Below are positions 30,922-52,063 of a stretch of 64,000 nucleotides of DNA, piece after piece (the stretch's first letter is position 1; each line of letters starts with the position of its first letter). Made by a program: the position numbers and the translations under genes. The notes beneath the pieces were generated by a model. That model searched no databases, was not told the origin of the DNA, and saw nothing but the letters and a program-made list of their open reading frames with translations. Location of the stretch: NCBI GenBank assembly GCA_965243105.1, contig CBDEUC010000003.1:2487541-2551540 (forward strand), given 5' to 3'. This DNA is from Gammaproteobacteria bacterium. GTDB taxonomy: Bacteria; Pseudomonadota; Gammaproteobacteria; Eutrophobiales; Eutrophobiaceae.

Positions 30922-32103
30922 TTAGTCGATTGTATTCCCGGGAACGCGTACCAGGCCTTCCATGAGCACACGGGCGCTCCGGCCCATGCTGACTTTCTCC
31001 ACCAGCCATTTTCCTGAATCATTCCTGCAGGTTGCGCCGACCTTGAGCGTTCCCGAGGGATGACCAAAGGTGACACTGCTTCGTTCACCTCCGCCAGCCG
31101 CGAGGTTAACCAGGGTACCGGGAATACTGGCTGCCGTGCCGATGGCCACTGCAGCGGTTCCCATCATGGCGTGGTGTAATTTGCCCATGGAAAGCGCGCG
31201 CACGTTCAGATCAATATCTGCTGAGGACACCTGCTTGCCACTGGACGCCCTGTAATCTGCCGGTGGTGCAACAAACGCAACCTTGGGCACGTGCTGGCTT
31301 TTCTCAGCACCAGCCAGGTCATTAAACAAACCCATCATCATTCCGCCGTGGGCGCGAATAGTTTCAAACCGTGCCAACGCTTCGGGATCGCCATTGATTG
31401 CGTCCTGTAACTCGGTTCCGCTGTAGCCAATGTCTGCTGCATTAAGAAAAATGCTCGGTATTCCGGAATTGATCAGGGTGGCATCAAGGGTCCCTATCCC
31501 TGGCACCTCAATTGAATCCACCAGGTTTCCAGTAGGGAACATCTCTTCCGAGGGGTCTACGGGTTCGAGAAAATCAATTCCAACCTCTGCTGCTGGAAAT
31601 GTCACCCCATCAAGTTCGAAGTCACCTGTCTCCTGTACCTCACCATTCGTAATTGGCACATGGGCGATAATGGTCTTTTGAATATTGACCTGGAAAATGC
31701 GTACCTCCGCAGTACCGTTTTCCGGGATTCGACCAGGCTCGACCAGCCCGTTGCTTATGGCAAAGGGGCCGACCGCGGCTGACAGGTTGCCACAATTTCC
31801 GCCCCAGTCGACGAAGGGTTCGTCTATGGATACCTGGCCAAACAGGTAATCCACATCATGATCGGGCTTGTCGCTTTTACACAGGATCACGGCCTTGCTG
31901 GTGCTCGACGTTGCGCCTCCCATACCGTCGGTGTGCTTGCCATAGGGATCAGGGCTTCCAATAACCCGCATCAGGAAGCTGTTCCTGGCTTCACCTGCTG
32001 CGCGTGCTGATTCGGGTAAGTCGTCGCGAAGGAAAAATACCCCCTTGCTTGTACCACCTCGCATGTAGGTGGCGGGAACGCGGACTTGGGCTGGATGGCT
32101 CAT
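30922..32103 (-). CDS. prpF: 2-methylaconitate cis-trans isomerase
   Basis: PrpF-family N-terminus (YMRGGTSKGVFF). Immediately downstream of acnD. Confidence 0.75.
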   Translation of the reverse strand: MSHPAQVRVPATYMRGGTSKGVFFLRDDLPESARAAGEARNSFLMRVIGSPDPYGKHTDGMGGATSSTSKAVILCKSDKPDHDVDYLFGQVSIDEPFVDWGGNCGNLSAAVGPFAISNGLVEPGRIPENGTAEVRIFQVNIQKTIIAHVPITNGEVQETGDFELDGVTFPAAEVGIDFLEPVDPSEEMFPTGNLVDSIEVPGIGTLDATLINSGIPSIFLNAADIGYSGTELQDAINGDPEALARFETIRAHGGMMMGLFNDLAGAEKSQHVPKVAFVAPPADYRASSGKQVSSADIDLNVRALSMGKLHHAMMGTAAVAIGTAASIPGTLVNLAAGGGERSSVTFGHPSGTLKVGATCRNDSGKWLVEKVSMGRSARVLMEGLVRVPGNTID

Positions 32104-32114
32104 GCAATATTGTC

Positions 32115-34727
32115 TCAGGCAGCGGTGGAATCAAGAAAATCCTGGGCGAAGCGTTGCAAAACACCACCGGCAGTATAAACGGTTAACTCTTCCTCGGTAT
32201 CAAGACGGCAGGTGACATTTATCATGACACTGGATCCGTCCCGTCTTGTCATTTCCACCACCAGCTTTGAAGCGGGTGCGATATTTCCCGTCACCGTAAA
32301 AGTTTCGCTGCCATCAATTTTATAGGTCTCACGTGTTTCACCACTTGTGAACTGCAGCGGTAACACGCCCATGCCGACAAGGTTGGTACGGTGAATACGT
32401 TCAAAACCTTCGGCGATAATGGCCTGCACACCCGCCAGGCGCACACCCTTGGCGGCCCAGTCGCGCGATGAACCCTGCCCATAGTCAGCACCAGCAATAA
32501 TACAAAGAGCCTGGTTCCTGTCCATGTAGGTTTCAATCGCTTCCCACATACGCATTTGTTTACCTTCGGGTTCGAGTCGTGCCAGTGAACCCTGCATCAC
32601 CTCGCCATCGTCATCCAGGCACATTTCGTTTAACAATTTTGGGTTGGCAAAAGTTGCGCGCTGCGCAGTCAGGTGGTCGCCACGATGGGTAGCATAGGAA
32701 TTAAAGTCTTCTTCCGGCAGACCCATGCTGGCGAGGTATTCACCGGCAGCGGAGCTTGCCAGGATAGCATTTGAGGGCGAGAGGTGGTCAGTGGTGATGT
32801 TATCACCCAGTACCGCCAGCGGGCGCATATCCTTGAGAGAGCGTTCTCCGGCCAGTGCTCCTTCCCAGTAGGGAGGCCGGCGTATGTAGGTGCTTTTGGG
32901 TCGCCAGTCATAAAGTGGGCTACTGGCAGGTTCAATCTTGCCGAGATCAAACATCGGGATATAGACGGAGCGGAATTGTTCGGGTTTTACAAATTCATTC
33001 ACAATGGCATCTATTTCTTCATCGGAAGGCCAGATATCCTTGAGCGTGATGGAATTTCCATTCGCGTCCTGTCCCAGCTCATCCTGCTCAATGTCAAATC
33101 GAACCGTGCCCGCTATGGCATAGGCAACAACCAGTGGTGGCGAGGCCAGGAATGCCTGCCTGGCATAGGGATGAATGCGACCGTCAAAATTTCGATTGCC
33201 CGAGAGCACCGCCGTGGCATAAACATCGCGATCAATAATTTCCTGCTGGATAACAGGGTCCAGGGCCCCGCTCATGCCATTACATGTGGTGCAGGCATAG
33301 GCCACGATTCCAAAGCCCAGTTTTTCCAGCTCATTTAGCAGGCCTGCTTCTTCAAGGTAGAGTTTTGCGACTTTTGAGCCCGGTGCAAAGGAAGATTTCA
33401 CCCATGGCTTGCGAACCAGTCCCAGTTCATTGGCCTTTTGTGCAAGTAAACCCGCTGCTACAACATTGCGAGGATTTGAAGTGTTTGTGCAACTGGTGAT
33501 GGCTGCAATGATCACCGCGCCGTCAGGCAATTTGCCTTCTTCTTCCTCTGCCCTGGTCCTGTCCAGGTTAACCGCTATACCTTTCTCCGCAAGAGCAGAA
33601 GTTGGCAGACGCCTGTGCGGGTTGGATGGTCCTGCCATGTTTCGCTCAACCGTGGACAGGTCAAACTGCAGGACCCGCTCATATTCTGCTGCGGAAAGTT
33701 CGCTTGCCCATAATCCTGCGGCCCTGGCATAGTTCTCTACCAGTTTTACCTGCTCGGCATCGCGCCCGGTCAGGTTGAGATAGTCAATGGTCTGCTCATC
33801 AATGTAGAACATTGCCGCTGATGCGCCATACTCAGGAGTCATGTTGGAAATTGTGGCTCGATCGCCAATGGTGAGTTTGCTGGCGCCATCACCATAAAAT
33901 TCAACGTAGGAAGACACGACACGTTCGCCACGCAGAAACTCCGTAATTGCAAGCACGATATCGGTGGCAGTTATGCCAGGCTTACGTTCGCCAATGAGTT
34001 CTACCCCCACGATTTCAGGCAGACGCATCATTGAGGGCCTCCCCAGCATGACGGTCTCTGCTTCAAGACCACCGACACCAATCGCAATTACGCCAAGCGC
34101 ATCCACGTGGGGTGTGTGGCTGTCGGTACCAACACAGGTGTCCGGAAAAGCAATTCCATCCCTTACCTGGATCACCGGGGACATTTTCTCAAGGTTGATT
34201 TGATGCATGATGCCATTACCGGCTGGAATAACATCCACGTTCCGGAATGCAGTCTTGGTCCATTCAATGAAATGAAAGCGATCTTCATTTCGGCGCTCTT
34301 CAATAGCGCGATTTTTTTCAAAAGCATCCGGGTCAAACCCGGCTGCTTCCACCGCGAGAGAGTGATCAACGATAAGCTGGGTGGGCACCACGGGATTCAC
34401 ATCGGCAGGGTCACCACCTTTATCGGCAATGGCATCACGCAAGCCGGCAAGATCGACCAGCGCCGTTTGACCGAGAATATCGTGGCAGACTACGCGTGCA
34501 GGATACCAGGGAAAGTCGATTTCCCTTTTGCGCTCGATGATTTGTTCCAGGTACGCGCCCAGTTGATCGGGATCGCAACGTCGCACCAGCTGTTCTGCCA
34601 GGATACGCGATGTGTAGGGTAAACTCCTGTAGGCCCCCGGCTTGATCTCATCCACAGCAGTCCGGGTGTCAAAATAATCCAGCTCGGTGCCGGGAAGGGA
34701 AATGCGGTACCTGGAATTGGTCTTCAT
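32115..34727 (-). CDS. acnD: Fe/S-dependent 2-methylcitrate dehydratase (aconitase family)
   Basis: 870-aa aconitase-A-like protein with Fe-S ligand cysteines. AcnD-type N-terminus. Confidence 0.8.
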   Translation of the reverse strand: MKTNSRYRISLPGTELDYFDTRTAVDEIKPGAYRSLPYTSRILAEQLVRRCDPDQLGAYLEQIIERKREIDFPWYPARVVCHDILGQTALVDLAGLRDAIADKGGDPADVNPVVPTQLIVDHSLAVEAAGFDPDAFEKNRAIEERRNEDRFHFIEWTKTAFRNVDVIPAGNGIMHQINLEKMSPVIQVRDGIAFPDTCVGTDSHTPHVDALGVIAIGVGGLEAETVMLGRPSMMRLPEIVGVELIGERKPGITATDIVLAITEFLRGERVVSSYVEFYGDGASKLTIGDRATISNMTPEYGASAAMFYIDEQTIDYLNLTGRDAEQVKLVENYARAAGLWASELSAAEYERVLQFDLSTVERNMAGPSNPHRRLPTSALAEKGIAVNLDRTRAEEEEGKLPDGAVIIAAITSCTNTSNPRNVVAAGLLAQKANELGLVRKPWVKSSFAPGSKVAKLYLEEAGLLNELEKLGFGIVAYACTTCNGMSGALDPVIQQEIIDRDVYATAVLSGNRNFDGRIHPYARQAFLASPPLVVAYAIAGTVRFDIEQDELGQDANGNSITLKDIWPSDEEIDAIVNEFVKPEQFRSVYIPMFDLGKIEPASSPLYDWRPKSTYIRRPPYWEGALAGERSLKDMRPLAVLGDNITTDHLSPSNAILASSAAGEYLASMGLPEEDFNSYATHRGDHLTAQRATFANPKLLNEMCLDDDGEVMQGSLARLEPEGKQMRMWEAIETYMDRNQALCIIAGADYGQGSSRDWAAKGVRLAGVQAIIAEGFERIHRTNLVGMGVLPLQFTSGETRETYKIDGSETFTVTGNIAPASKLVVEMTRRDGSSVMINVTCRLDTEEELTVYTAGGVLQRFAQDFLDSTAA

Positions 34728-34737
34728 AAAACTTCAA

Positions 34738-34811
34738 ATTGTCGACATTTAAAGGAAATATTAGAAAATAATTCGCGAATACTAACAATATTCCCAATAA
34801 TTGTCGACAAT
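34738..34811. promoter_or_regulatory. Two palindromic TGTCGACA-core sites (34740-34747 and 34800-34811) in the acnD/cheR divergent region
   Basis: Read directly. The 12-bp perfect palindrome ATTGTCGACAAT and a second TGTCGACA core lie about 60 bp apart. Confidence 0.3.
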
Positions 34812-35033
34812 GTTGGTATTTTTGATCTTTCTCCCGGTGTTCGTCCGCAGCGCTGCATAACATCGAAAGCAGCAGGATTTCCAGCCACGTCAGGCCAGGA
34901 AGATGCGCAGCGAAGGGTCGCCGCCAGGCCCTGTAGGCAAATACACGCTTCGCAGCGCTTTAGTTTTTACCGTCGCTACCGATATGCAGGTAAATAGAAT
35001 TTTTACAGGCATATCGTCCGTCATAGCTGGTCA

Positions 35034-35894
35034 TTGAACGTGGGCATACCATTGGAAAATCAACTCGAATTTACTGACCAGCAATTCAACAAGCTGAGAA
35101 GTCTTCTTCACCAGGAAGCAGGAATAGCCCTGGCAGACATCAAGAAAGAATTGATGTATGGAAGGCTATTCAGGCGAATCAGGAACCTGAACCTGTCCGG
35201 CTTTGATGATTATCTTTCATTACTTGAACACAAGCCGGAACAGGAGATGGGGGATTTTATCAATTCCATCACTACCAATCTCACCGGTTTTTTCCGCGAA
35301 GAACATCATTTTCATTACCTGCAAAATGAAGTATTGCCCTGGATATACCAACGTCACCGCATCGACAAGCGTATCAGGATATGGTCGGCGGGCTGCTCCA
35401 CGGGAGAAGAACCCTACAGCATTGCCATGGCGCTGCTTGAAAGCATTCCTGAACCACAAAAGTGGGACATACAGATCCTGGCCACAGACATAGACTCCCA
35501 GGTTATCTCGACAGCGTCTTTCGGTATCTACGGTGCCGGTGCCATCGCTAAAATTTCTCCCCGGCGAAAGCAGCGCTGGTTTGAGCAAGCGGGCCAGGAA
35601 GAGGGTGGGAAAATGATAATAAAAAAGGAAGTAAGGAACCTGGTTACATTCAAGCGCCTGAACCTGGTAGATGATTGGGCAATGAGAAACAAATTTGACG
35701 TTATCTTTTGCAGAAACGTGGTGATCTACTTTGACAGGAAAACGAAATGCAGGCTTTTTGCCCGCTTTGCAGAACATAGCTGCCCCGGTGGATTCCTGTT
35801 TATCGGGCATTCCGAGTCCCTGTTTGATCTCAATGATAGTTTTAAACTGATTGGTAACACGGTTTATCGAAAAACCGGCACGGACAATAAATAA
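35034..35894 (+). CDS. cheR: Chemotaxis protein methyltransferase
   Basis: CheR N-terminal helical domain plus SAM-dependent methyltransferase motifs (RIWSAGCSTGEEPYS). Confidence 0.8.
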   Translation: MNVGIPLENQLEFTDQQFNKLRSLLHQEAGIALADIKKELMYGRLFRRIRNLNLSGFDDYLSLLEHKPEQEMGDFINSITTNLTGFFREEHHFHYLQNEVLPWIYQRHRIDKRIRIWSAGCSTGEEPYSIAMALLESIPEPQKWDIQILATDIDSQVISTASFGIYGAGAIAKISPRRKQRWFEQAGQEEGGKMIIKKEVRNLVTFKRLNLVDDWAMRNKFDVIFCRNVVIYFDRKTKCRLFARFAEHSCPGGFLFIGHSESLFDLNDSFKLIGNTVYRKTGTDNK

Positions 35895-35932
35895 GATACT
35901 TATTGTTTAACAACTTGAACAAGAAAAAGAAA

Positions 35933-37033
35933 ATGGGAAAGAGCATAAAAGTATTGATAGTCGACGATTCTATCCTCGTCAGGAAACTGATGCAGCGCAT
36001 CCTGGAAAAGGACGGTGACCTGGAAGTCGTGGGAACTGCGGAAGACGCCTTTGTCGCCCTGGAAATGATTAACAGGCTAAAGCCCGATGTACTGACCCTT
36101 GATGTCGAAATGCCAGGGATGAATGGCATCACTTTCCTGTCCAGGTTGATGCAATCGAATCCCCTGCCTGTGGTAATGGTCTCCTCCCTGACTGAAAAGA
36201 ATGCGGATATCACACTGCAGGCGCTGGAACTTGGTGCAGTTGAATTTGTGACAAAACCAAGGGTTGATGTTGCTGCGACGCTTGATGGATATTCCAGTGA
36301 ATTGATTCGTAAAATCAAGATCGCCTCAAAAGCAAATATAGTGGCGAGACATACTCGGGCGAGGCAAGCACCGGCGAATGCCAGAATCAAGACAACCTCT
36401 TTTCGTCGATCTTTAACGTCGCAGGACAGGCTCGATGAAGCCGATTATCCTGCCCCCTATGAACTAATCGCTATCGGTGCTTCGACTGGTGGCACTGAGG
36501 CGATTCGTGAAATCCTTCACGTGATGCCACGGACGGCGCCAGCCATCGTTATCACTCAGCACATCCCGGAAGGTTTCAGCGGAGTGTTTGCCAGGCGTCT
36601 CGATTCAATCACCGAGATGAATGTGTGCCAGGTCGAAGGTGAAGAACAAATTTGCGAGGGTAACGTTTACATAGCACCCGGTAATCGACATCTCTCGATT
36701 GTTAAGCAGGGAAACAGGTTGTCCTGCAAGTTGACAGCGGGTAAACCGGTTAATTACCACATTCCATCTGTAGAGGTTCTGTTTCGTTCTGTTGCAAGGT
36801 ATGTCGGCAAGAATGCGATCGGCGTGATGCTCACCGGGATGGGCAGTGATGGTGCAGATGCACTCAGGGAAATGCGGCAGACCGGTGCCCTGACAATTGC
36901 CCAGGATGAGCAAAGCAGCGTGGTCTGGGGTATGCCGGGAGAAGCTGTTTCAAGGGGTGCGGTTGATATCGTCCTGCCCCTGAATGAAATTTCTACAAAG
37001 CTACTTCGTGCTTCACGAAGACTGGCGGCATAA
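35933..37033 (+). CDS. cheB: Protein-glutamate methylesterase/glutaminase with receiver domain
   Basis: REC domain (VLIVDDS...D) and CheB methylesterase catalytic domain (GASTGG...). Start at the internal MGKSIKV. Confidence 0.8.
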   Translation: MGKSIKVLIVDDSILVRKLMQRILEKDGDLEVVGTAEDAFVALEMINRLKPDVLTLDVEMPGMNGITFLSRLMQSNPLPVVMVSSLTEKNADITLQALELGAVEFVTKPRVDVAATLDGYSSELIRKIKIASKANIVARHTRARQAPANARIKTTSFRRSLTSQDRLDEADYPAPYELIAIGASTGGTEAIREILHVMPRTAPAIVITQHIPEGFSGVFARRLDSITEMNVCQVEGEEQICEGNVYIAPGNRHLSIVKQGNRLSCKLTAGKPVNYHIPSVEVLFRSVARYVGKNAIGVMLTGMGSDGADALREMRQTGALTIAQDEQSSVVWGMPGEAVSRGAVDIVLPLNEISTKLLRASRRLAA

Positions 37034-37074: not shown

Positions 37075-38676
37075 CTACTTTAACCGGAAGCCATCGTACC
37101 CGCTGTTTGCTACCTCGCGGCATTTTTCATAATAACCAGGACAGCCTATGTAGGGCATAAACACCCTTGGTTTCCCCGGGATGTTCGCCCCGAGATACCA
37201 GGAATTACAGCCCAGCAACAATGATGTTTCGGCAAGTTCATTCACGTGGCTTACCCAGGCCTGTTCAGCACTGACTTCAGCCTCCATCGAGCCAAGTTGT
37301 TGCTCGCGCAGGTAGACGATAGCGTCCCTAATATACTCAACGTGCTGCTCTATAGATGGCATCATGTTGCTTAACACCGAGGGAGAGCCAGGACCTGTAA
37401 TCATGAACATATTTGGGAAACCGGCAACTTGTAGTCCCAGGTAATTAAGTGGTCCGGCTTCCCACTTGTTCTTTAACGTTTGCCCATCACGACCACGTAT
37501 ATCTATTCGCAGCAGAGCACCTGTCATGGCGTCGTAGCCAGTAGCCAGTACGATAACGTCAAACTCGTACTCTTTATTTCCAACAAGGATACCCTTTTCT
37601 GTGTAGCCTTCGATGGGTGTTGAGCTGATGTCCACTAAATCAACATTTTCACGGTTAAAGGTTTCGTAGTAGCCAGTGTCCGTAACGACTCTTTTACAGC
37701 CGAATATGGTTTGTGGAAGCAGTTTTTCAGCAACAGCAGGATCTTTGACGGTCTGACGAATTTTTTCTCGTATAAAATTTGCGGCAATATCGTTGGCATT
37801 TTTGTCAACCAGCAGATCGGCGAAAACACCGTACCACTTCAAACCACCCAGCTCCCAGCGATGTTCCAGTTCCTTTCGAATCTCCTCTTGGCTCATTTCC
37901 CCGGCACAGCGTTCATTGGGTTCAAACTCCATGTTGCCAAACTGGCTTCGCGCAGAATCGCGCAAGTCGTCATAGTGGACCTTGATGTTTTCCTGCTCCC
38001 CCTCGTGAAAAGGGCGATTGTGAGAGGGTACGCTGAAGGCAGGTGTACGTTGAAAAACAGTCAGCTCTTTGGCCTGCTTCGCGATAGCGGTAATACTTTG
38101 CACGCCGGATGAACCGGTACCAATCACAGCGACTTTTAGCCCGGAAAAATCCACCTCTTCGTGGGGCCACTCCCCAGTATGATAGATCGTTCCCTTGTAG
38201 GCAGACTCGTTTTTAAACACCGGCCTGGAAGTGTTAGAGAGACAACCGGTTGCGAAGATGCAAAATTGTGCAGAGAAGTGTTCGCCTGTGGTTGAAACCA
38301 GCAGCCAGCGGCAATTTGCTTCATCATATGTTGCCGACTCAACGCGAGTGTTCAACCGGATACCATCGGCAAGTTTGAAGCGCTCTACCACGTGTTCCAT
38401 GTAGGAAAGGATCTCGGCCTGGCTTGAATATTTTTCTGACCAGGTCCAGTCCTGTTGTAACTGCTTGTCGAACTGGTAGGAATATTCCATGCTGGGCGCA
38501 TCGCAACGGGCACCCGGATAACGATTCCAGAACCAGGTACCACCGATGCCACTGCCAGCCTCGAGGACTTTTACAGAGAACCCGGCTTCCCGGGCACAGT
38601 GCAGCATGTACAGGCCAGAAAACCCTGCGCCTACAATAATGATATCCAGCTCTGAATTTTCCCCTGATCCTGTCAT
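37075..38676 (-). CDS. Baeyer-Villiger (type I flavin-dependent) monooxygenase
   Basis: FAD GxGxxG (VGAGFSG). BVMO fingerprint FxGxxxHxxxWP (FKGTIYHTGEWP). Second Rossmann motif GTGSSG. Confidence 0.75.
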   Translation of the reverse strand: MTGSGENSELDIIIVGAGFSGLYMLHCAREAGFSVKVLEAGSGIGGTWFWNRYPGARCDAPSMEYSYQFDKQLQQDWTWSEKYSSQAEILSYMEHVVERFKLADGIRLNTRVESATYDEANCRWLLVSTTGEHFSAQFCIFATGCLSNTSRPVFKNESAYKGTIYHTGEWPHEEVDFSGLKVAVIGTGSSGVQSITAIAKQAKELTVFQRTPAFSVPSHNRPFHEGEQENIKVHYDDLRDSARSQFGNMEFEPNERCAGEMSQEEIRKELEHRWELGGLKWYGVFADLLVDKNANDIAANFIREKIRQTVKDPAVAEKLLPQTIFGCKRVVTDTGYYETFNRENVDLVDISSTPIEGYTEKGILVGNKEYEFDVIVLATGYDAMTGALLRIDIRGRDGQTLKNKWEAGPLNYLGLQVAGFPNMFMITGPGSPSVLSNMMPSIEQHVEYIRDAIVYLREQQLGSMEAEVSAEQAWVSHVNELAETSLLLGCNSWYLGANIPGKPRVFMPYIGCPGYYEKCREVANSGYDGFRLK

Positions 38677-38760: not shown

Positions 38761-40509
38761 CTAGGTAGCGGCTTTATTTGTCAACCACAGGGTTTGATAT
38801 GGCGCCAGGCTGATGGTTGCCTGCTGATCCTCGAAACTTGTTCCACTGACCAGGTCTGTCCATTCATCAGTCACTATCAGGTTTATGTCCATCAGCCTGA
38901 GAGACTGTTCCCGGTGCGTGATATTGTGAAGGCAGAAGATGCTCTGGTCTCGCTCGAGGCTTTGTCTCCAGAAAGCGAATATTGTATCCCCCATGTGCAT
39001 GGTGAACTGGGTAGCATTTGGGTGGAAAGCAGCCTGGTTACGGCGAACCTTTATGAGATGTTTCAAGCGACTGAAAACTTGTGCATGGTGAGTTGCTCCT
39101 GAAAGCTTACTTTCCAGATCTTCGAGGTCCCAAATATGGCGGTTTATTGCACGATTACTGCCGGTGTGCTCCCGACGATTGTGATCATTTTCTGTGGCCA
39201 CGAGGCTGTGCAGGTAGAACGCAGGAATACCCTCAAGCCCGAGCATGATGGCATGGGCGCAAACAAAACGTTCAAGTTGCCACTCATCGGGCTCGCCCTC
39301 AAGAGTACCTTTCAACGCGTCAAACAGCGCAATATTAATTTCATAGGGTTTCTTCTCGCTGTCATTGAGTGCACGCCATGACACGTGACCGCCGAAGTTT
39401 TGCATGGTGTTTATCAGGGCGTCGAGGTCATCATCATCCAGTATTCCCTCGACAGGTCTTAGACCTATGCCATCGTGTGAAGCGATAAAATTAAAATATG
39501 TTGTTCCCATCTGTGCCGGCGGCATGCTCATCATCCAGTTCTTAAGGTGGTGACAGTTACCGGACAGCAGCGTGTAAAGTAAAAGCGGGGGTAATGAAAA
39601 GTTGTAAATCATATGGGCTTCGTTGGCATTACCAAAGTAACTGAGGTTCTCACGGTTGGGAATGTTGGTTTCCGTGATAATGAGGCTACCCGGCGTATGT
39701 GCTTCAGTGATACTACGAAACAGGCGAACGATCTCATGGGTTTCCGGGAGGTTAAGACAATTAGTACCCGGTTCTTTCCAGAGGAAGGCAACGGCATCAA
39801 GCCGAAATATTTTTACTCCTTTTTCAAGATAAAATCTTACAATCTCGACAAATTCGATTAATACATCGGGGTTTGAAAAATCCAGGTCGACCTGGTCTGC
39901 GCTGAAGGTGCACCAAACGTAACGCTCCCCATTCGGGGTATCTATCGCCTTCAGGAGCTCATTGGTTCTCGGTCGGACTACCATGGACAGGTCTTTATCA
40001 GGAGTGGTCGTATAAAAGTAATCTTTCCCGGGAGATTCGCCGCGCCTGAATTGTTCAAACCAGCGGCTCCTGCCGGAGCAGTGATTTATCACGAGGTCAG
40101 ACATCAACTTGAAATGTTCGGCGAGTCTTTCTATGTCTTCCCAATCGCCCATCGAGTCATTGACCTGCAGGTATTCCATGACAGCAAAGCCGTCGTCGGA
40201 ACTGTAGGGAAAGAATGGCAGCAAATGAACTATGGAGATGCTGTCAGCGAGGTAGTGATCAAGAAAATGCTGCAAGGAGGCAAGGGGATGCCTGGTATCC
40301 TGTTCAAGGGTGTTGCCGTAGGTAATAACCGCGATGTCGGATTCATTCCAAAGCGACGTATTATCAACACTCGGTTCGCAACTACTGTCTAACCCGGCAG
40401 CCTCCAGGATACGTGTTGAGATATTTTCAACATCGTGCTCGGGATATATGCGGGTAACGTGATTAAGAACGCGAGCGAACAGCCCGTCAGCTTCAAATTC
40501 TGCTGGCAC
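38761..40509 (-). CDS. GH13 sucrose-phosphorylase-like sugar phosphorylase (candidate glucosylglycerate phosphorylase)
   Basis: GH13_18-like architecture. It sits immediately downstream of, and is co-oriented with, glycosyl-3-phosphoglycerate synthase and phosphatase genes. Confidence 0.6.
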
Positions 40510-40515
40510 GACTTA

Positions 40516-41742
40516 CTACTCCGACGCAAATTCTTTCATGTCTTCATCCACGGCCGAGAGAAACTCGGTAGTGACCGTTGGTATTGCACTGGTAATACGG
40601 GTCCAACTGGGGATAAAAGGTGTTTCCATGGGATGGTCAAGAAAGTGGAGTCCGGCTTTCATAATATTCTCTGCAAATAATTCCACGGCCTTCTCCTCGG
40701 CATGAATGTCCAGGCTGAGACCGTTTATTGCCGCATCATTGTTGTATGTTTCAATAAAGTCCAGTGCAATTCTAAAGTAGGTAGCCTTTATTGTGCGAAA
40801 GGTTTCAGTATTAAACACCACGCCTGTCGTCGCCAGTTTTCTAAAAATTGCCTTGCTGATATCAATTGACATCTTGGAAAGCCCCTTGGACTCATCATCA
40901 AAGGACAAGGTCTGGTGCTTATGATCATACTGATCTGCAATATCCACCTGGCATAATCGATTATTCGCGTAATTACGGTTCATTTCTGAAAGAACACCAA
41001 TTTCAAGACCCCAGTCACTCGGGATTCGAATATCATTTATAACGTCCGTTCGTAACGAAAACTCACCGGCAAGCGGGTATCGAAAACTATCAAGGAATTC
41101 AATGTAGCTATCCAGGCCAAAAATCTTCTTGAGAGAACGTAGCAGGGGGGTGACCAGCAGGCGGCATACGCGGCCATTGATAGAGCCCGCTGCCACACGC
41201 GGGTAGAACCCTTTACAAAACACATAGTTAAAGTTCGGGTTAGCTACAGGATAGATGAGGCGGGCCAGCATTTGCCTGTCATAGGTAACAATGTCGCAGT
41301 CATGTAGTGCGACGGATTCGGCAATGTTTGCGGCATTCACGTAGCCGAGGCAATACCAGACATTACGTCCCTTGCCTAGCTCACGAGGCTGCAGGTTATG
41401 TGCTTTCAGTTTCTCATCGATTGCCTGCAAACGAGGGCCATCATTCCAAAGCACCCTGTGGTTACCCGGTAACCTGGCAAAAAAACTTAGAGCATGGCGG
41501 TATTGTTTCTCGTCGGCCCGATCAAGACCGATAACAATTTGTGACAGGTAAGGTACCTTGCATAGTTCATTAACAATCGTCGTTAAGGCGGGGCCTTCCA
41601 GTTCGGAATAGAGACAGGGAAGCACGAGCGCCATGGGCCGGGACGCTGAAAAACTGACCAGTTCCTGCTCGATTTCTTCGAGTGGCCGATGAGTCAGGTT
41701 GTGTAAAGTCGTTACAATTCCGTTCTGTTGAAAATCACCCAT
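40516..41742 (-). CDS. Glycosyl-3-phosphoglycerate synthase (glucosyl- or mannosyl-3-PG synthase family glycosyltransferase)
   Basis: About 400-aa GT-A-like protein with a DxD-like HDCDIV. Syntenic with an MPGP-family phosphatase. Confidence 0.5.
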   Translation of the reverse strand: MGDFQQNGIVTTLHNLTHRPLEEIEQELVSFSASRPMALVLPCLYSELEGPALTTIVNELCKVPYLSQIVIGLDRADEKQYRHALSFFARLPGNHRVLWNDGPRLQAIDEKLKAHNLQPRELGKGRNVWYCLGYVNAANIAESVALHDCDIVTYDRQMLARLIYPVANPNFNYVFCKGFYPRVAAGSINGRVCRLLVTPLLRSLKKIFGLDSYIEFLDSFRYPLAGEFSLRTDVINDIRIPSDWGLEIGVLSEMNRNYANNRLCQVDIADQYDHKHQTLSFDDESKGLSKMSIDISKAIFRKLATTGVVFNTETFRTIKATYFRIALDFIETYNNDAAINGLSLDIHAEEKAVELFAENIMKAGLHFLDHPMETPFIPSWTRITSAIPTVTTEFLSAVDEDMKEFASE

Positions 41743-41746
41743 TAGA

Positions 41747-42544
41747 TTAATCCCCTTCGCTTTCGTGTTTTTGCAGCAGGCTTAAGATTGCGTCGTTCCA
41801 GCCCTTTGGCCCGACCTGATTTGTTATCGTGAGTCTATCATGGCTAAAAACTGGTAGATGATGAACCGGGGAACGAACCAGGACTGCTTCGTCAGCGGTC
41901 TCCAGCATGCGTTTATCATTCTCGCTATCTCCCAGTGCAACGACCCATGGCTTCGTTGACCATTTTTCATGATAGTAATTTCTAAGCCACGCCATGGCGT
42001 CAGACTTGTCATATTCACCCTGAACATGAACGAAGCGCCCACCACGTTGTGTATGTAAATTTTGCAATGACAGGCGGTCACAAAAATCATCAAGATGTGA
42101 ATCCGATTGCCGCCACAGCAGCGGTTCACTGAAATCGCGTTTCATGGCATTCATTGCAGCTTTTATTTCAAGGCCGGTGGATGACTGGATTTCCTCGATC
42201 GTCATATCGGCGAAACCGATAAAGTTGTACTGCTGCTGTGTCCTGAGCCGGTGAATAATCTCCAGTATTTCCTGGCGCTTTTGCGCAAACGTTATTTCCG
42301 GGGTGGGCGTGTCGGAAAGGTATACCGCAGCGCCGTTTTCAACAACGAATGGGTCTGTCACACCCAGTTGTTCCCGAAGAGCGAGTATTTCTGCGGCAGT
42401 TTTACTGCTGCTGAAGACCAGTGGGATCCGGTGTTTCTTCAGGGCATCAATACCGGGCAATGCCGCTTCGTAACTGTAGGTGTGATGGTCCAGCAGGGTA
42501 CCGTCAAGGTCAGTGATTACTACGATTGAAGATGTGCCTGTCAC
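41747..42544 (-). CDS. HAD-IIB mannosyl/glucosyl-3-phosphoglycerate phosphatase (YedP/MpgP family)
   Basis: HAD motif I (ITDLDGTLL) and Cof-type cap region. About 265 aa. Confidence 0.65.
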   Translation of the reverse strand: MTGTSSIVVITDLDGTLLDHHTYSYEAALPGIDALKKHRIPLVFSSSKTAAEILALREQLGVTDPFVVENGAAVYLSDTPTPEITFAQKRQEILEIIHRLRTQQQYNFIGFADMTIEEIQSSTGLEIKAAMNAMKRDFSEPLLWRQSDSHLDDFCDRLSLQNLHTQRGGRFVHVQGEYDKSDAMAWLRNYYHEKWSTKPWVVALGDSENDKRMLETADEAVLVRSPVHHLPVFSHDRLTITNQVGPKGWNDAILSLLQKHESEGD

Positions 42545-42782
42545 GGGTGAACCAGTTTTGAATCTACATGAGCGGTGAAGGCGAAATTATACCGTTTATT
42601 GGGTGTGAGGGCGGCATTTTGGTTTTCATGGAGTTCGCCCCAATCTGGGGAAATTGCATCCTTTTGGGGCATGTTCAAGGCTGTCATTGAGATTGTGCAG
42701 GAAACATAGATAATCCTGTTCTGGGTTATGAATGCTTCCCGGTAATGTATCTGTATCCTTAAAAGACGGAGAACACATCACT

Positions 42783-42998
42783 ATGAAATTGCCAGCGGTC
42801 AATCTCACCATCTTCCTCACTATTTTTTCTCAACAGCTAACAGCTCACCCGTTTCACGATAGCCTGTTCCATTCACATTATCTTTCGTGGGTCGCCAGCA
42901 GCGCGGTGTTTTGCGTCATCATCTACTTCGGTGCACGGCAAGTAAAAAATATGGGCCAGCAGAAAAAAGCCAGGCAAAGAAACCACGGGGATAAATAA
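42783..42998 (+). CDS. Small hydrophobic His-rich ORF upstream of ureD (speculative)
   Basis: MKLPAVNLTIFLTIF...HPFHDSLFHSHY, followed by one TM segment. No support from a recognised family. Confidence 0.2.
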   Translation: MKLPAVNLTIFLTIFSQQLTAHPFHDSLFHSHYLSWVASSAVFCVIIYFGARQVKNMGQQKKARQRNHGDK

Positions 42999-43002
42999 CA
43001 GG

Positions 43003-43878
43003 GTGAACTTTCCTGCTCTATCTTCGAGTGGTTTGAACGGAGATATTGATTCCCGCCAGGTCGCTCGACACTGGCCTGCGCAGCTCAGTCTTGCATATGT
43101 GCGGAACAGGGAAGGCACAAAGCTGGCCAGGCGTCGCCACTTTGGGCCCCTGTGCGTGCAGAAACCTTTTTACCCGGAAGGGCCTGGAGTCTGTCACACC
43201 TATATCCTGCATCCACCGGCTGGCATCGCCGGTGGTGATGCCCTTGATATTGATGTCGAACTGGACAGCGAAAGTGAAGTCCTAATAACAACGCCTGCGG
43301 CGACCAAGTTCTACCGCGCAAATCCCTACCCGGCAAAGCTGACACAACAAATCAGGGTTGCAGAGAGAGCCAGCATGGAATGGCTGCCCCAGGGGAATAT
43401 CTTTTTTGATGGCGCTGAAGTCCTGTTAAAGACGATCATGAAACTAAAGCAGGATTCGCGTTTAATTGCATGGGATAGCCAGTGTCTCGGACGACCAGCA
43501 TGCAAGGAAATCTATAGCAGCGGAGCTTACCAGCAAAGGTTTGAAGTGTGGGTAGATGAGCAACCGGTAATGATCGATAGCCTTGGCTTGTCGGCAGGCT
43601 CAAAGATGCAATCGGCTCAATGGGGTCTTTCTGCAAAGGCGGTAAATGCCATCCTTGTTGCCTACCCGGCTGACCAGGCCCTGCTCGAAACCATTAACAT
43701 TTTTATTGAGCAGAACATCCCTGGTTGCGCAGCCACGCTTGTCGATGGTCTATTGCTCGTTCGTTGTTTTGGGGATGAACTCGATAGTATGCATCACAGG
43801 CTGACCAGTCTCTGGCAGCTGCTTCGTCCTTCGATACTTGGGAAGGAACCCTGTATACCAAGAATCTGGAATACTTAA
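43003..43878 (+). CDS. ureD: Urease accessory protein UreD
   Basis: UreD/UreH family. First gene of the ure operon. Confidence 0.8.
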   Translation: MNFPALSSSGLNGDIDSRQVARHWPAQLSLAYVRNREGTKLARRRHFGPLCVQKPFYPEGPGVCHTYILHPPAGIAGGDALDIDVELDSESEVLITTPAATKFYRANPYPAKLTQQIRVAERASMEWLPQGNIFFDGAEVLLKTIMKLKQDSRLIAWDSQCLGRPACKEIYSSGAYQQRFEVWVDEQPVMIDSLGLSAGSKMQSAQWGLSAKAVNAILVAYPADQALLETINIFIEQNIPGCAATLVDGLLLVRCFGDELDSMHHRLTSLWQLLRPSILGKEPCIPRIWNT

Positions 43879-44525: not shown

Positions 44526-46229
<1,704 letters not shown>

Positions 46230-50602: not shown

Positions 50603-52063
50603 GTGGATACTTATCGTCAACAATTGGCCGAGCAATTTCGTGAATTTCTTGATGATGAAAGTGTCATCGACCAGCCGACGTCCCTGGCTGCCTATGAATG
50701 TGATGGCCTGAGCGCCTATCGCCAGCAACCCCTGCTGGTTCTCCTGCCTTCAACAACAGAACATGTTCAGGAGATCATGCGTATTTGCCATGAAAAGGAA
50801 ATCCCGGTTGTTGGTCGTGGCGCAGGCACAAGCCTGTCGGGTGGTGCCTTACCACACAGTGAAGGCGTCGTGCTCAGCCTGGCAAAGATGAACCGCATCC
50901 TGAAGATTGATCCTCTTGCGCGCAGTGCCGTGGTTGAAGCCGGGGTCCAAAACCTGTCCATTTCTGATGCTGTGCGCCAGCATGGACTGTACTACGCACC
51001 GGATCCTTCCTCGCAGATCGCCTGTTCCATCGGGGGCAACGTTGCTGAGAATGCCGGCGGCGTCCATTGCCTGAAGTACGGGCTCACCCTGCATAATGTA
51101 CTTGCACTGAAGTATGTTGCCAGCGACGGCGAGCTCATGGAGATCGATCAGTGTTCCATGCAACAGCATGGCTATGATCTTCTCCCTTTACTGGTTGGCT
51201 CAGAGGGAATGCTCGGTATCGTGGTGGAAGTTACGGTGAAGCTACTGCCAATACCCAGCAGCGCAAAAGTTGTCATGGGCGTGTTTGATTCTGTTGACCT
51301 CGCTGGCAACAGTGTCGCTGCAATCATTGCCGCGGGAATCATACCGGCTGGTATAGAGATGATGGATAACCCGGCGATTCGTGCTGCCGAGGATTTTGTT
51401 AATGCGGGTTACCCGGTTGATGCCGAGGCCATCCTGATTTGCGAACTGGACGGTACTGAAGAGGAAGTGCAGGTCCAGCTTGAACAGGTAAAGAAGGTGC
51501 TCGCCGATGGCGGTGCAGTTGAGACGCGCCTGGCCAGGAATGAGGCAGAACGCCTGCTTTTCTGGTCTGGTCGAAAGGCGGCTTTCCCTGCAGTGGGGCG
51601 ACTGTCGCCGGATTACTATTGTATCGATGGCACTATTCCGAGAAAGGAACTGGCAAAAGTGCTTTCCGGCATAAAGGAACTCTCCGAATCTTATGGTCTG
51701 CCCGTCGCAAACGTTTTTCACGCGGGTGATGGCAACCTGCACCCGCTGATTCTTTATGATGCAAACAGGGAAGGTGAGCTTGAAAAGACAGAGGAACTCG
51801 GCAGCAGGATACTGCAGCTTTGTATTCAACATGGTGGCACGATAACCGGTGAACATGGCGTTGGTGTGGAGAAGCTCGGTGAAATGTGCATACAGTTCAG
51901 CGACGCTGAACGGGAACGCTTTCATGAACTCAGGGAGTGCTTTGACGAAAAGGGGATCCTGAACCCGGGCAAGGCTATTCCCACCCTGGCACGTTGTGCC
52001 GAGTTCAACGGCATGCATGTACATGATGGCGACCTGCCTTTCCCGGAACTGGATCGTTTCTAG
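50603..52063 (+). CDS. glcD: Glycolate oxidase FAD-linked subunit
   Basis: FAD_binding_4 plus FAD-oxidase C-terminal domain. Followed by glcE and glcF. Confidence 0.75.
   Translation: MDTYRQQLAEQFREFLDDESVIDQPTSLAAYECDGLSAYRQQPLLVLLPSTTEHVQEIMRICHEKEIPVVGRGAGTSLSGGALPHSEGVVLSLAKMNRILKIDPLARSAVVEAGVQNLSISDAVRQHGLYYAPDPSSQIACSIGGNVAENAGGVHCLKYGLTLHNVLALKYVASDGELMEIDQCSMQQHGYDLLPLLVGSEGMLGIVVEVTVKLLPIPSSAKVVMGVFDSVDLAGNSVAAIIAAGIIPAGIEMMDNPAIRAAEDFVNAGYPVDAEAILICELDGTEEEVQVQLEQVKKVLADGGAVETRLARNEAERLLFWSGRKAAFPAVGRLSPDYYCIDGTIPRKELAKVLSGIKELSESYGLPVANVFHAGDGNLHPLILYDANREGELEKTEELGSRILQLCIQHGGTITGEHGVGVEKLGEMCIQFSDAERERFHELRECFDEKGILNPGKAIPTLARCAEFNGMHVHDGDLPFPELDRF

Follow-up and report, generated by a model that had tools for sequence, protein, structure and literature searches.

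The window analysed here is a 64,000-nucleotide stretch of DNA from an uncultured gammaproteobacterium. Positions 38761-42544 are filled by exactly three co-oriented open reading frames (ORFs) on the minus strand, separated by gaps of 4 nt (41743-41746, between gpgP and gpgS) and 6 nt (40510-40515, between gpgS and the GH13 gene). The ORF list thus agrees with the preliminary description, which had reported three co-oriented minus-strand genes with 4-6 nt gaps. The ORFs are real genes and not chance occurrences, because they have strong family matches, thousands of homologues and conserved synteny, and they are probably co-transcribed as an operon. The features of the locus were assigned as follows:

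41747..42544, minus strand: gpgP, 265 aa, GTG start; predicted glucosyl-3-phosphoglycerate phosphatase, HAD-IIB, MPGP/YedP family.
40516..41742, minus strand: gpgS, 408 aa, ATG start; predicted long-type (~400 aa) glucosyl-3-phosphoglycerate synthase.
38761..40509, minus strand: ggaP, 582 aa, GTG start; candidate GH13_18-type glucosylglycerate phosphorylase (GGaP).
42586..42591, minus strand: candidate -10 box (TATAAT), ~40 nt upstream of the gpgP start and without a recognisable -35; tentative.
42545..42782, no strand: divergent intergenic region, with gpgP on one side and a small conserved ORF and the ure operon on the other.

A Shine-Dalgarno-like sequence stands ahead of gpgS (AAGGGG) and of the GH13 gene (GGAG). 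For gpgP, none is evident ahead of the GTG, which is the sole start upstream of the catalytic DLDGT motif and is kept in L002, the corresponding locus of the closest relative (91% identical). The promoter and regulatory sites of the operon presumably lie in 42545..42782, which is ~91% identical to L002 over the aligned stretch. The TATAAT at 42586-42591 was read from the sequence and is also present in L002 (CGGTATAATTTC); a promoter scan did not list it because the -35 is absent. No Rfam family matched in or near the operon, the divergent region included, and no terminator-like site was found 3' of the GH13 gene. A BVMO-like gene (37075-38676) follows on the same strand, 84 nt downstream of the GH13 gene, and the intervening gap likewise held no terminator-like site (hairpin not significant, z -0.77). 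This gene was not counted as part of the conserved cluster, being kept only in L002 among the related loci.

GpgP matched TIGR01486 (HAD-SF-IIB-MPGP; 218.1 bits, above the cutoff of 164.75) and Pfam Hydrolase_3, its closest solved structure was E. coli YedP (1xvi, E = 3.9e-36), and it carries the HAD catalytic motifs DLDGT (residues 12-16) and GDSEND (residues 205-210). HAD-type GpgPs are MpgP homologues, and GPG and MPG are dephosphorylated alike. All MpgP equivalog models scored under their own cutoffs for the window phosphatase, which appears more consistent with a GpgP than with a bona fide MpgP. The scores of GpgP (275, cutoff 362) and GpgS (NF040724, GpgS_Meth; 358 bits, cutoff 700) against NCBIfam equivalog models were also below threshold, and the naming of both proteins therefore rests on homology and context.

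The alignment of GpgS to NF040724 (E = 5.5e-107) runs end to end, from residues 3-405 of the protein to positions 2-402 of the 402 in the model. Searched alone, the window GpgS matched only mycobacterial GpgS among solved structures. A profile of 15 homologues searched against the PDB also ranked mycobacterial GpgS first (E = 4.8e-07), in a near tie of GT81 GpgS (32.7 bits) with GT78 Rhodothermus MpgS (28.7 bits) that makes this comparison weakly discriminating. The GT-A DxD motif, which binds metal and nucleotide sugar, is present as H147-D148-C149-D150 (HDCD), is invariant in the 15 homologues, and lines up with DSD in mycobacterial GpgS. The protein shares 75% identity with a homologue from Marinobacter (P0218), and homologues at 74-79% identity carry the name glucosyl-3-phosphoglycerate synthase (JGI, NCBI). 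GT55 MpgS models from NCBIfam and Pfam gave no match to the synthase at E <= 0.01, and no Pfam family matched it. As judged from sequence, the synthase is GpgS-like and not a GT55 mannosyl-3-phosphoglycerate synthase; it groups with GpgS and not with unrelated glycosyltransferases, the outcome on which the preliminary description had made its reading depend. That description had left the product as glucosyl- or mannosylglycerate, and the full-length NF040724 match together with the unmatched GT55 MpgS models points to the glucosyl form. Glucose would be favoured over mannose as the donor sugar, with indirect support from the absence of a GT55 MpgS match, the linkage to a GGaP-type phosphorylase and the annotation of homologues as GpgS.

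The GH13 protein matched Pfam Alpha-amylase (E = 9.8e-29), with no Pfam match over its first ~55 residues. Its nucleophile D238 (RLDA), acid/base E280 (TETN, residues 279-282) and D346 (SHDG) align with their counterparts in sucrose phosphorylase (7qqj), glucosylglycerol phosphorylase (7xdq) and YcjM, a characterised GGaP of E. coli. The acid/base motif reads IITETNIP (residues 277-284) where 7qqj has PEIH, and the loop A motif PYEIN (residues 388-392, with E390) corresponds to IYQIN in 7qqj and IYQLT in 7xdq, so that Glu replaces Gln. TETN and the loop A Glu (Gln in other clades) were defined as GGaP diagnostics in a review (PMC7178133) and applied likewise in PMC10608839. TETN occurs in 43 of the 44 TETN-clade sequences, including YcjM (the exception, L043, has TEVN). 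The loop A Glu is shared by the window protein with all 43 other aligned sequences of the clade, again including YcjM; both motifs are absent from 8/8 amylosucrase-like outgroup sequences.

Pairwise comparison gave 39% identity to YcjM (390 bits over 526 residues), 31% to 7qqj (205 bits) and 32% to 7xdq (171 bits). In a neighbour-joining tree of 443 columns, built without bootstrap and sampling one characterised GGaP (YcjM) and two other GH13_18 sequences, the GH13 protein and YcjM fell together, with 7qqj and 7xdq on a separate branch. Members of the immediate subclade of the protein are 57-66% identical to it, as against 39% for the nearest characterised GGaP compared. Filing as a sucrose phosphorylase was rejected on a TIGR03852 score of 211 bits, below the cutoff of 334.4. 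By both published signatures the protein is a candidate strict-type GGaP; the preliminary description had allowed for acceptor-site residues of the sucrose phosphorylase type, and those found (TETN, loop A Glu) are of the GGaP type. The assignment in that description of the three genes to a phosphatase, a synthase and a GH13 phosphorylase is upheld by the family matches, structures, motifs and tree.

Gene order was compared across related loci. gpgS adjoins the GH13 gene in ~27 of the 44 TETN-clade loci and gpgP adjoins gpgS in 21; the full gpgP-gpgS-GH13 arrangement, in the same order and strand, recurs in ~19-20 loci spanning Gammaproteobacteria, Methylophilaceae, Planctomycetota and Verrucomicrobiota. 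Farther TETN-clade loci adjoin MggS-like glycosyltransferases. Among cultured relatives, homologues from Marinobacter, Microbulbifer, Ferrimonas or Hahella are 60-77% identical. In seven related loci the cluster includes a gene for a P-loop kinase that may be a glycerate kinase. No glycerate kinase gene was found in the 64-kb window, neither of this P-loop type nor of the E. coli GlxK type; glycerate kinase is the step that would close the recycling loop.

The window GH13 protein resembles the GGaPs (EC 2.4.1.352; GH13_18) E. coli YcjM, Meiothermus silvanus Mesil_0665 and Spirochaeta thermophila Spith_0877 in its Asp/Glu/Asp residues, TETN, the Glu of loop A PYE(I/L)N, a length of ~560-580 aa, a C-terminal beta domain and its tree clade (YcjM). 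It differs from YcjM in its first ~53 residues, which are unaligned, and falls in a subclade of proteins from marine Gammaproteobacteria and planctomycetes apart from the characterised GGaPs. E. coli ycjM is part of an operon for the uptake and catabolism of sugars (ycjMNOPQRSTUV), whereas the window ggaP is beside gpgS and gpgP. The latter arrangement is like that of the glucosylglycerate (GG) genes of Synechococcus sp. PCC 7002 (A2021 GPGS, A2022 GGAP, A2023 GPGP), Prochlorococcus (a "glucosylglycerate metabolism operon" with an adjacent transporter gene) and Marinobacter (all three genes in 198 of 250 genomes), where the three functions likewise place synthesis and phosphorolytic recycling in one locus. 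By locus tags GGAP lies between GPGS and GPGP in PCC 7002, in contrast to gpgP-gpgS-ggaP in the window, and the window locus lacks a transporter gene such as that beside the Prochlorococcus cluster. A long-type GpgS with a HAD-type, MpgP-homologous phosphatase is also the composition of the two-step GpgS/GpgP pathway of Methanococcoides burtonii, Persephonella marina and Rhodopirellula baltica, although the window scores are under the equivalog cutoffs. The mannosylglycerate pathway (GT55 MpgS and MpgP) draws its phosphatase from the same HAD-IIB MPGP family but differs in its synthase, that of the window being a GpgS homologue without a GT55 MpgS match.

The locus is very probably a gpgP-gpgS-ggaP operon for GG metabolism, a reading based on gene identities, catalytic and specificity motifs, a clade shared with a characterised GGaP, and conserved synteny. 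GpgS would transfer glucose from NDP-glucose onto D-3-phosphoglycerate to give glucosyl-3-phosphoglycerate, from which the HAD-IIB GpgP would strip the phosphate to yield 2-O-alpha-D-glucosyl-D-glycerate, a compatible solute with a negative charge. The GH13_18 enzyme would be a phosphorylase of the retaining type, in which Asp238 serves as nucleophile, Glu280 as acid/base and Asp346 as stabiliser, and would catalyse the reversible reaction GG + phosphate <-> alpha-glucose 1-phosphate (Glc1P) + D-glycerate. The GG pool could thereby be run down and recycled into central metabolism with the energy of the glycosidic bond kept. We infer the actual substrates of the three enzymes and also the phosphorolytic direction in vivo, the latter because cellular phosphate far exceeds Glc1P. 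Futile cycling would probably be blocked post-transcriptionally, by regulation of the enzymes or by the levels of their substrates. PMC7178133 describes the role that GGaP plays in vivo as unconfirmed.

That the GH13 enzyme is mainly synthetic in vivo (alpha-Glc1P + D-glycerate -> GG + Pi) is quite improbable. It would then provide a nucleotide-sugar-independent third route to GG, parallel to GpgS/GpgP, instead of degrading their product. Co-expression with synthetic genes is more readily explained if all three make GG, and the reaction is reversible, with characterised GGaPs binding D-glycerate tightly (KM 1-5 mM; 110 U/mg in synthesis). Phosphate in cells is normally far above Glc1P, however, and free D-glycerate is scarce, which would favour phosphorolysis, and the P-loop kinase within seven related clusters fits use of the released glycerate. 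A phosphorylase-like gene linked to GG genes has been proposed as such a third route, as cited in PMC3736172. Against this, transcript data from Prochlorococcus have been interpreted as GG recycling to G1P and 3PG, and E. coli, which has YcjM without gpgS, is not believed to be a GG accumulator (PMC7178133).

It is very unlikely that the GH13 protein has a specificity other than that of a strict GGaP. It would then be a GG phosphorylase that also uses sucrose, a genuine sucrose phosphorylase, or an enzyme whose substrate is the phosphorylated intermediate or some larger glyceryl glycoside, for instance mannosylglucosylglycerate. Identity to YcjM is only 39%, the GH13_18 enzyme XpGP accepts both sucrose and glycerate, and distant TETN-clade loci have the MggS-like neighbours noted above. 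The R. baltica "SPase", encoded in an mggS-mggB cluster and compared from its published description, reportedly cleaves sucrose and forms no GG from sucrose and glycerate (PMC3736172). In the window protein, however, both GGaP-diagnostic motifs are intact, with the loop A Gln typical of sucrose-acting clades changed to Glu, and its gene is embedded in a gpgP-gpgS cluster without an extra glycosyltransferase.

Urease genes are adjacent and divergent, with ureD starting at 43003, and the preliminary description had connected this to nitrogen limitation. The adjacency is real, but the implied link was dropped as unsupported because only the closest relative shares the urease neighbourhood and gpgP has no promoter of the sigma-54 type ahead of it. 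Among 52 related loci checked, only L002 has ureD in this position, and it is not beside the other ~26 loci with gpgS-GH13 adjacency. No sigma-54-like TGG-N9-10-TGC element turned up in a targeted search of the region ahead of gpgP, and over the whole window the pattern matched 369 times against 342 expected, no better than chance. The operon-embedded GGaP subclade comprises the window, marine Gammaproteobacteria, Methylophilaceae and Planctomycetota, and is at most ~40% identical to the characterised GGaPs compared. It is improbable that this subclade is other than simply catabolic, serving as a phosphate- and Glc1P-sensing valve for GG or as a net synthase, with the urease promoter region coupling GG to nitrogen. 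As a valve, GGaP co-transcribed with GpgS and GpgP would set the steady-state GG pool; as a net synthase it would make GG from Glc1P and glycerate; and nitrogen coupling would act through a divergent promoter region common to the GG and urease operons of this lineage.

Reading the window locus as a gpgP-gpgS-ggaP operon, the preliminary description was correct, and the system is an ordinary one that has already been described. A synthase, a phosphatase and a phosphorylase in one locus are the documented norm for this pathway and give no new insight; the specificity of GGaP was itself originally deduced from genomic association with gpgS/gpgP, the clue to its discovery (PMC7178133). The literature has already asked why genes for synthesis and degradation are transcribed together and what keeps futile cycling in check, and this locus sheds no special light on the question. 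Its main use is in correct annotation, as ggaP and gpgS can be named with good confidence where many homologues in databases are labelled "sucrose phosphorylase" or "alpha-amylase" (GH13 protein) or "glycosyl transferase" (synthase). This naming predicts that the uncultured gammaproteobacterium can make and recycle glucosylglycerate, a solute tied to salt stress and nitrogen scarcity.

The interval 38761-42544 was filled exactly by three minus-strand open reading frames (ORFs) separated by gaps of 4 nt and 6 nt, the same co-oriented genes and spacing that the preliminary description had reported:

41747-42544, minus strand, gpgP (phosphatase), 265 aa, GTG start
40516-41742, minus strand, gpgS (synthase), 408 aa, ATG start
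38761-40509, minus strand, GH13 gene (ggaP, phosphorylase candidate), 582 aa, GTG start

The GC content of this stretch (~48-50%) was unremarkable and like that of the flanking sequence. Shine-Dalgarno-like sequences were found ahead of gpgS and the GH13 gene, and no obvious one was found upstream of the gpgP GTG, which is the sole start before the catalytic DLDGT motif and is kept in the nearest relative. One candidate -10 box, a conserved TATAAT, lies at 42586-42591, no terminator was found 3' of the GH13 gene, and the three genes are predicted from sequence to be co-transcribed.

The GH13 protein contains an alpha-amylase catalytic domain with the catalytic residues Asp238, Glu280 and Asp346 intact. 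It scored 211 bits against the sucrose phosphorylase equivalog model, below the cutoff of 334, and its top solved relatives, at ~190 bits, were 7qqj (sucrose phosphorylase) and 7xdq (glucosylglycerol phosphorylase). Strict glucosylglycerate phosphorylases (GGaPs) were told apart by their discoverers using two sequence diagnostics, TETN at the acid/base position and a loop A Glu versus Gln elsewhere (PMC7178133), and a TETN/PYELN test was used likewise in a later paper (PMC10608839). The window protein carries TETN at 279-282 and PYEIN at 388-392, its loop A Glu occupying the position of Gln in the IYQIN motif of 7qqj and the IYQLT motif of 7xdq. Identity to YcjM, the characterised E. coli GGaP, was 39% over 526 residues (390 bits), versus 31% (205 bits) for 7qqj and 32% (171 bits) for 7xdq. 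Neighbour-joining with three reference sequences, on branches without support values, placed the window protein in one clade with YcjM, and the sucrose and glucosylglycerol phosphorylases on a separate branch, with amylosucrase-like sequences as outgroup. TETN was present in all members of the YcjM clade except that of one locus, L043 (TEVN), and PYE(I/L/M)N in all. The sucrose-phosphorylase-like enzyme of the preliminary description is thus, by TETN, loop A Glu and clade, predicted to be a GGaP, and the acceptor-site comparison proposed there returned the GGaP-type Glu where 7qqj has Gln. GH13_18 also includes XpGP, a sucrose-active glucosylglycerate phosphorylase, and an 'SPase' from Rhodopirellula baltica, whose gene neighbours mggS/mggB, has been reported to cleave sucrose.

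The gpgS product matched no Pfam family and aligned end to end with NF040724, the NCBIfam model for Methanococcoides-type glucosyl-3-phosphoglycerate synthase (E 5.5e-107; 358 bits, short of the 700-bit equivalog cutoff), in keeping with the proposed synthase of ~400 aa. Whether it was glucosyl or mannosyl had been left open; the NF040724 match favours glucosyl, and none of the GT55 MpgS models matched. Searched alone against solved structures, the protein matched only mycobacterial GpgS, weakly over the DxD region, and a 15-homologue profile placed mycobacterial GpgS first at 32.7 bits and Rhodothermus MpgS at 28.7, a weakly discriminating result. H147-D148-C149-D150 was invariant in the homologue alignment. 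Marine Gammaproteobacteria (Ferrimonas, Hahella, Catenovulum, Marinobacter, Marinobacterium) carry abundant homologues of 74-79% identity, named glucosyl-3-phosphoglycerate synthase by several sources. The gpgP product (DLDGT 12-16, GDSEND 205-210) exceeded the curated cutoff of TIGR01486, the HAD-IIB MPGP subfamily (218 bits; cutoff 164.75), fell under every mannosyl-3-phosphoglycerate phosphatase equivalog cutoff and had E. coli YedP as its nearest solved structure, which bears out the MPGP/YedP-family assignment. Archetypal GpgPs are HAD-type MpgP homologues, and such enzymes dephosphorylate both glucosyl- and mannosyl-3-phosphoglycerate (PMC3240985).

A genome-collection scan returned 52 loci, 44 of them in the TETN clade. 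A GpgS homologue (42-97% identity) directly adjoined the GH13 gene in about 27 of the 44, and an MPGP-family phosphatase was also present in 20 loci besides the window (21 with it), giving all three genes. The usual arrangement was gpgP-gpgS-GH13 on one strand, in Gammaproteobacteria (Halieaceae, Pseudohongiella, several MAGs), Methylophilaceae, Planctomycetota (Rhodopirellula, Novipirellula) and one verrucomicrobial MAG; exceptionally, in two loci, the GH13 gene was convergent with gpgS-gpgP. No further conserved neighbour gene was found across these loci. Within the TETN clade, some loci that are more distant (L020 3067-6699, with equivalents in L023, L031, L032, L039, L040 and L044; Bacteroidales, Pirellulaceae, Roseibacillus) have the GH13 gene together with two GT4-like glycosyltransferases weakly matching the mannosylglucosylglycerate synthase model NF041101, and in some of them with a HAD hydrolase, a gene content suggestive of a mannosylglucosylglycerate-type cluster for a di-glycosyl-glycerate.

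Gene identities and motifs were observed directly; the substrates are predicted. GpgS would condense NDP-glucose with 3-phosphoglycerate, GpgP would remove phosphate from the product to give glucosylglycerate, and the GH13_18 phosphorylase would reversibly convert glucosylglycerate and phosphate to alpha-glucose 1-phosphate and D-glycerate. In vivo the phosphorylase is more likely to run towards phosphorolysis, since cellular phosphate is normally far above glucose 1-phosphate. Seven related loci carry, immediately upstream of gpgP and co-oriented with it, a P-loop kinase gene (~308 aa, Pfam PRK/uridine kinase family) with weak PanK-like matches:

L006, 5011-5937
L007, 4929-5885
L010, 4714-5742
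L011, 4927-5853
L012, 4946-5863
L014, 4951-5877
L042, 5030-5914

This position fits the published association, in which a glycerate kinase often accompanies GGaP genes (PMC7178133). The protein is a candidate D-glycerate kinase, which would convert glycerate to 3-phosphoglycerate and so close the recycling loop. Neither a P-loop kinase of that type nor a GlxK-type glycerate kinase was found in the 64-kb window.

Urease genes adjoin the cluster in divergent orientation. The flanking ureD and Baeyer-Villiger-monooxygenase-like genes recur only in L002, the closest relative, which belongs to the same lineage since its contig proteins are 78-97% identical to those of the window. The adjacency in the preliminary description stands as a lineage-specific feature, and the link it suggested to nitrogen limitation is unsupported here: no sigma-54-type element was found upstream of gpgP, and the nitrogen connection, a literature-reported property of the solute, gains no evidence from this locus. 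Other features nearby were:

37075-38676, minus strand, Baeyer-Villiger-type flavin monooxygenase (Pyr_redox_3/FMO-like), 84 nt downstream of the GH13 gene
42783-42998, plus strand, small ORF (~71 aa from an internal ATG), hydrophobic with a His-rich stretch, HPFHDSLFHSHY, ending 4 nt before the ureD GTG start
44675-44961, minus strand, RF02514 (Rfam, 5' ureB sRNA) match, 111.7 bits
48052-49776, plus strand, 574-aa ORF directly 3' of ureG, Walker-A-like GASAAGKSS
30922-37033 and 50603-52063, prpF with an adjoining aconitase-family gene, a cheR-cheB pair and a GlcD-like FAD-linked oxidase

The monooxygenase scored 231 bits against the PtlE model, far under its cutoff, and no terminator was found in the 84-nt gap; being conserved in L002 only, it is probably unrelated to glucosylglycerate metabolism. 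The small ORF, whose protein sequence is kept in L002, matched no Pfam family above its cutoff and may represent a small membrane protein of the urease or nickel cluster that has escaped annotation. The RF02514 match lies on the strand opposite the urease alpha-subunit gene (44526-46229), over its 5' part, and most likely reflects coding-sequence conservation rather than an established antisense RNA in this organism. The 574-aa ORF had no Pfam match at E <= 0.1, the aconitase-family gene is probably acnD (methylcitrate pathway), and the window contains no tRNA genes.

That a 'sucrose phosphorylase-like' gene sits with gpgS and gpgP had been recognised while the function of its enzyme was still unknown, and it was this linkage that led to GGaP. 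In Synechococcus sp. PCC 7002, GPGS, GGAP and GPGP are consecutive locus tags (A2021-A2023), and all three genes occur in 198 of 250 Marinobacter genomes (PMC10873239); in Prochlorococcus, genes for both synthesis and recycling have been explicitly placed in a 'glucosylglycerate metabolism operon'. Synthesis and recycling in one locus, as the preliminary description had it, is therefore a documented norm; that reading was correct in substance, with glucosyl rather than mannosyl as the probable sugar. The gpgP-gpgS-ggaP system is already known and widespread, and the window adds one further instance, from a poorly sampled gammaproteobacterium.
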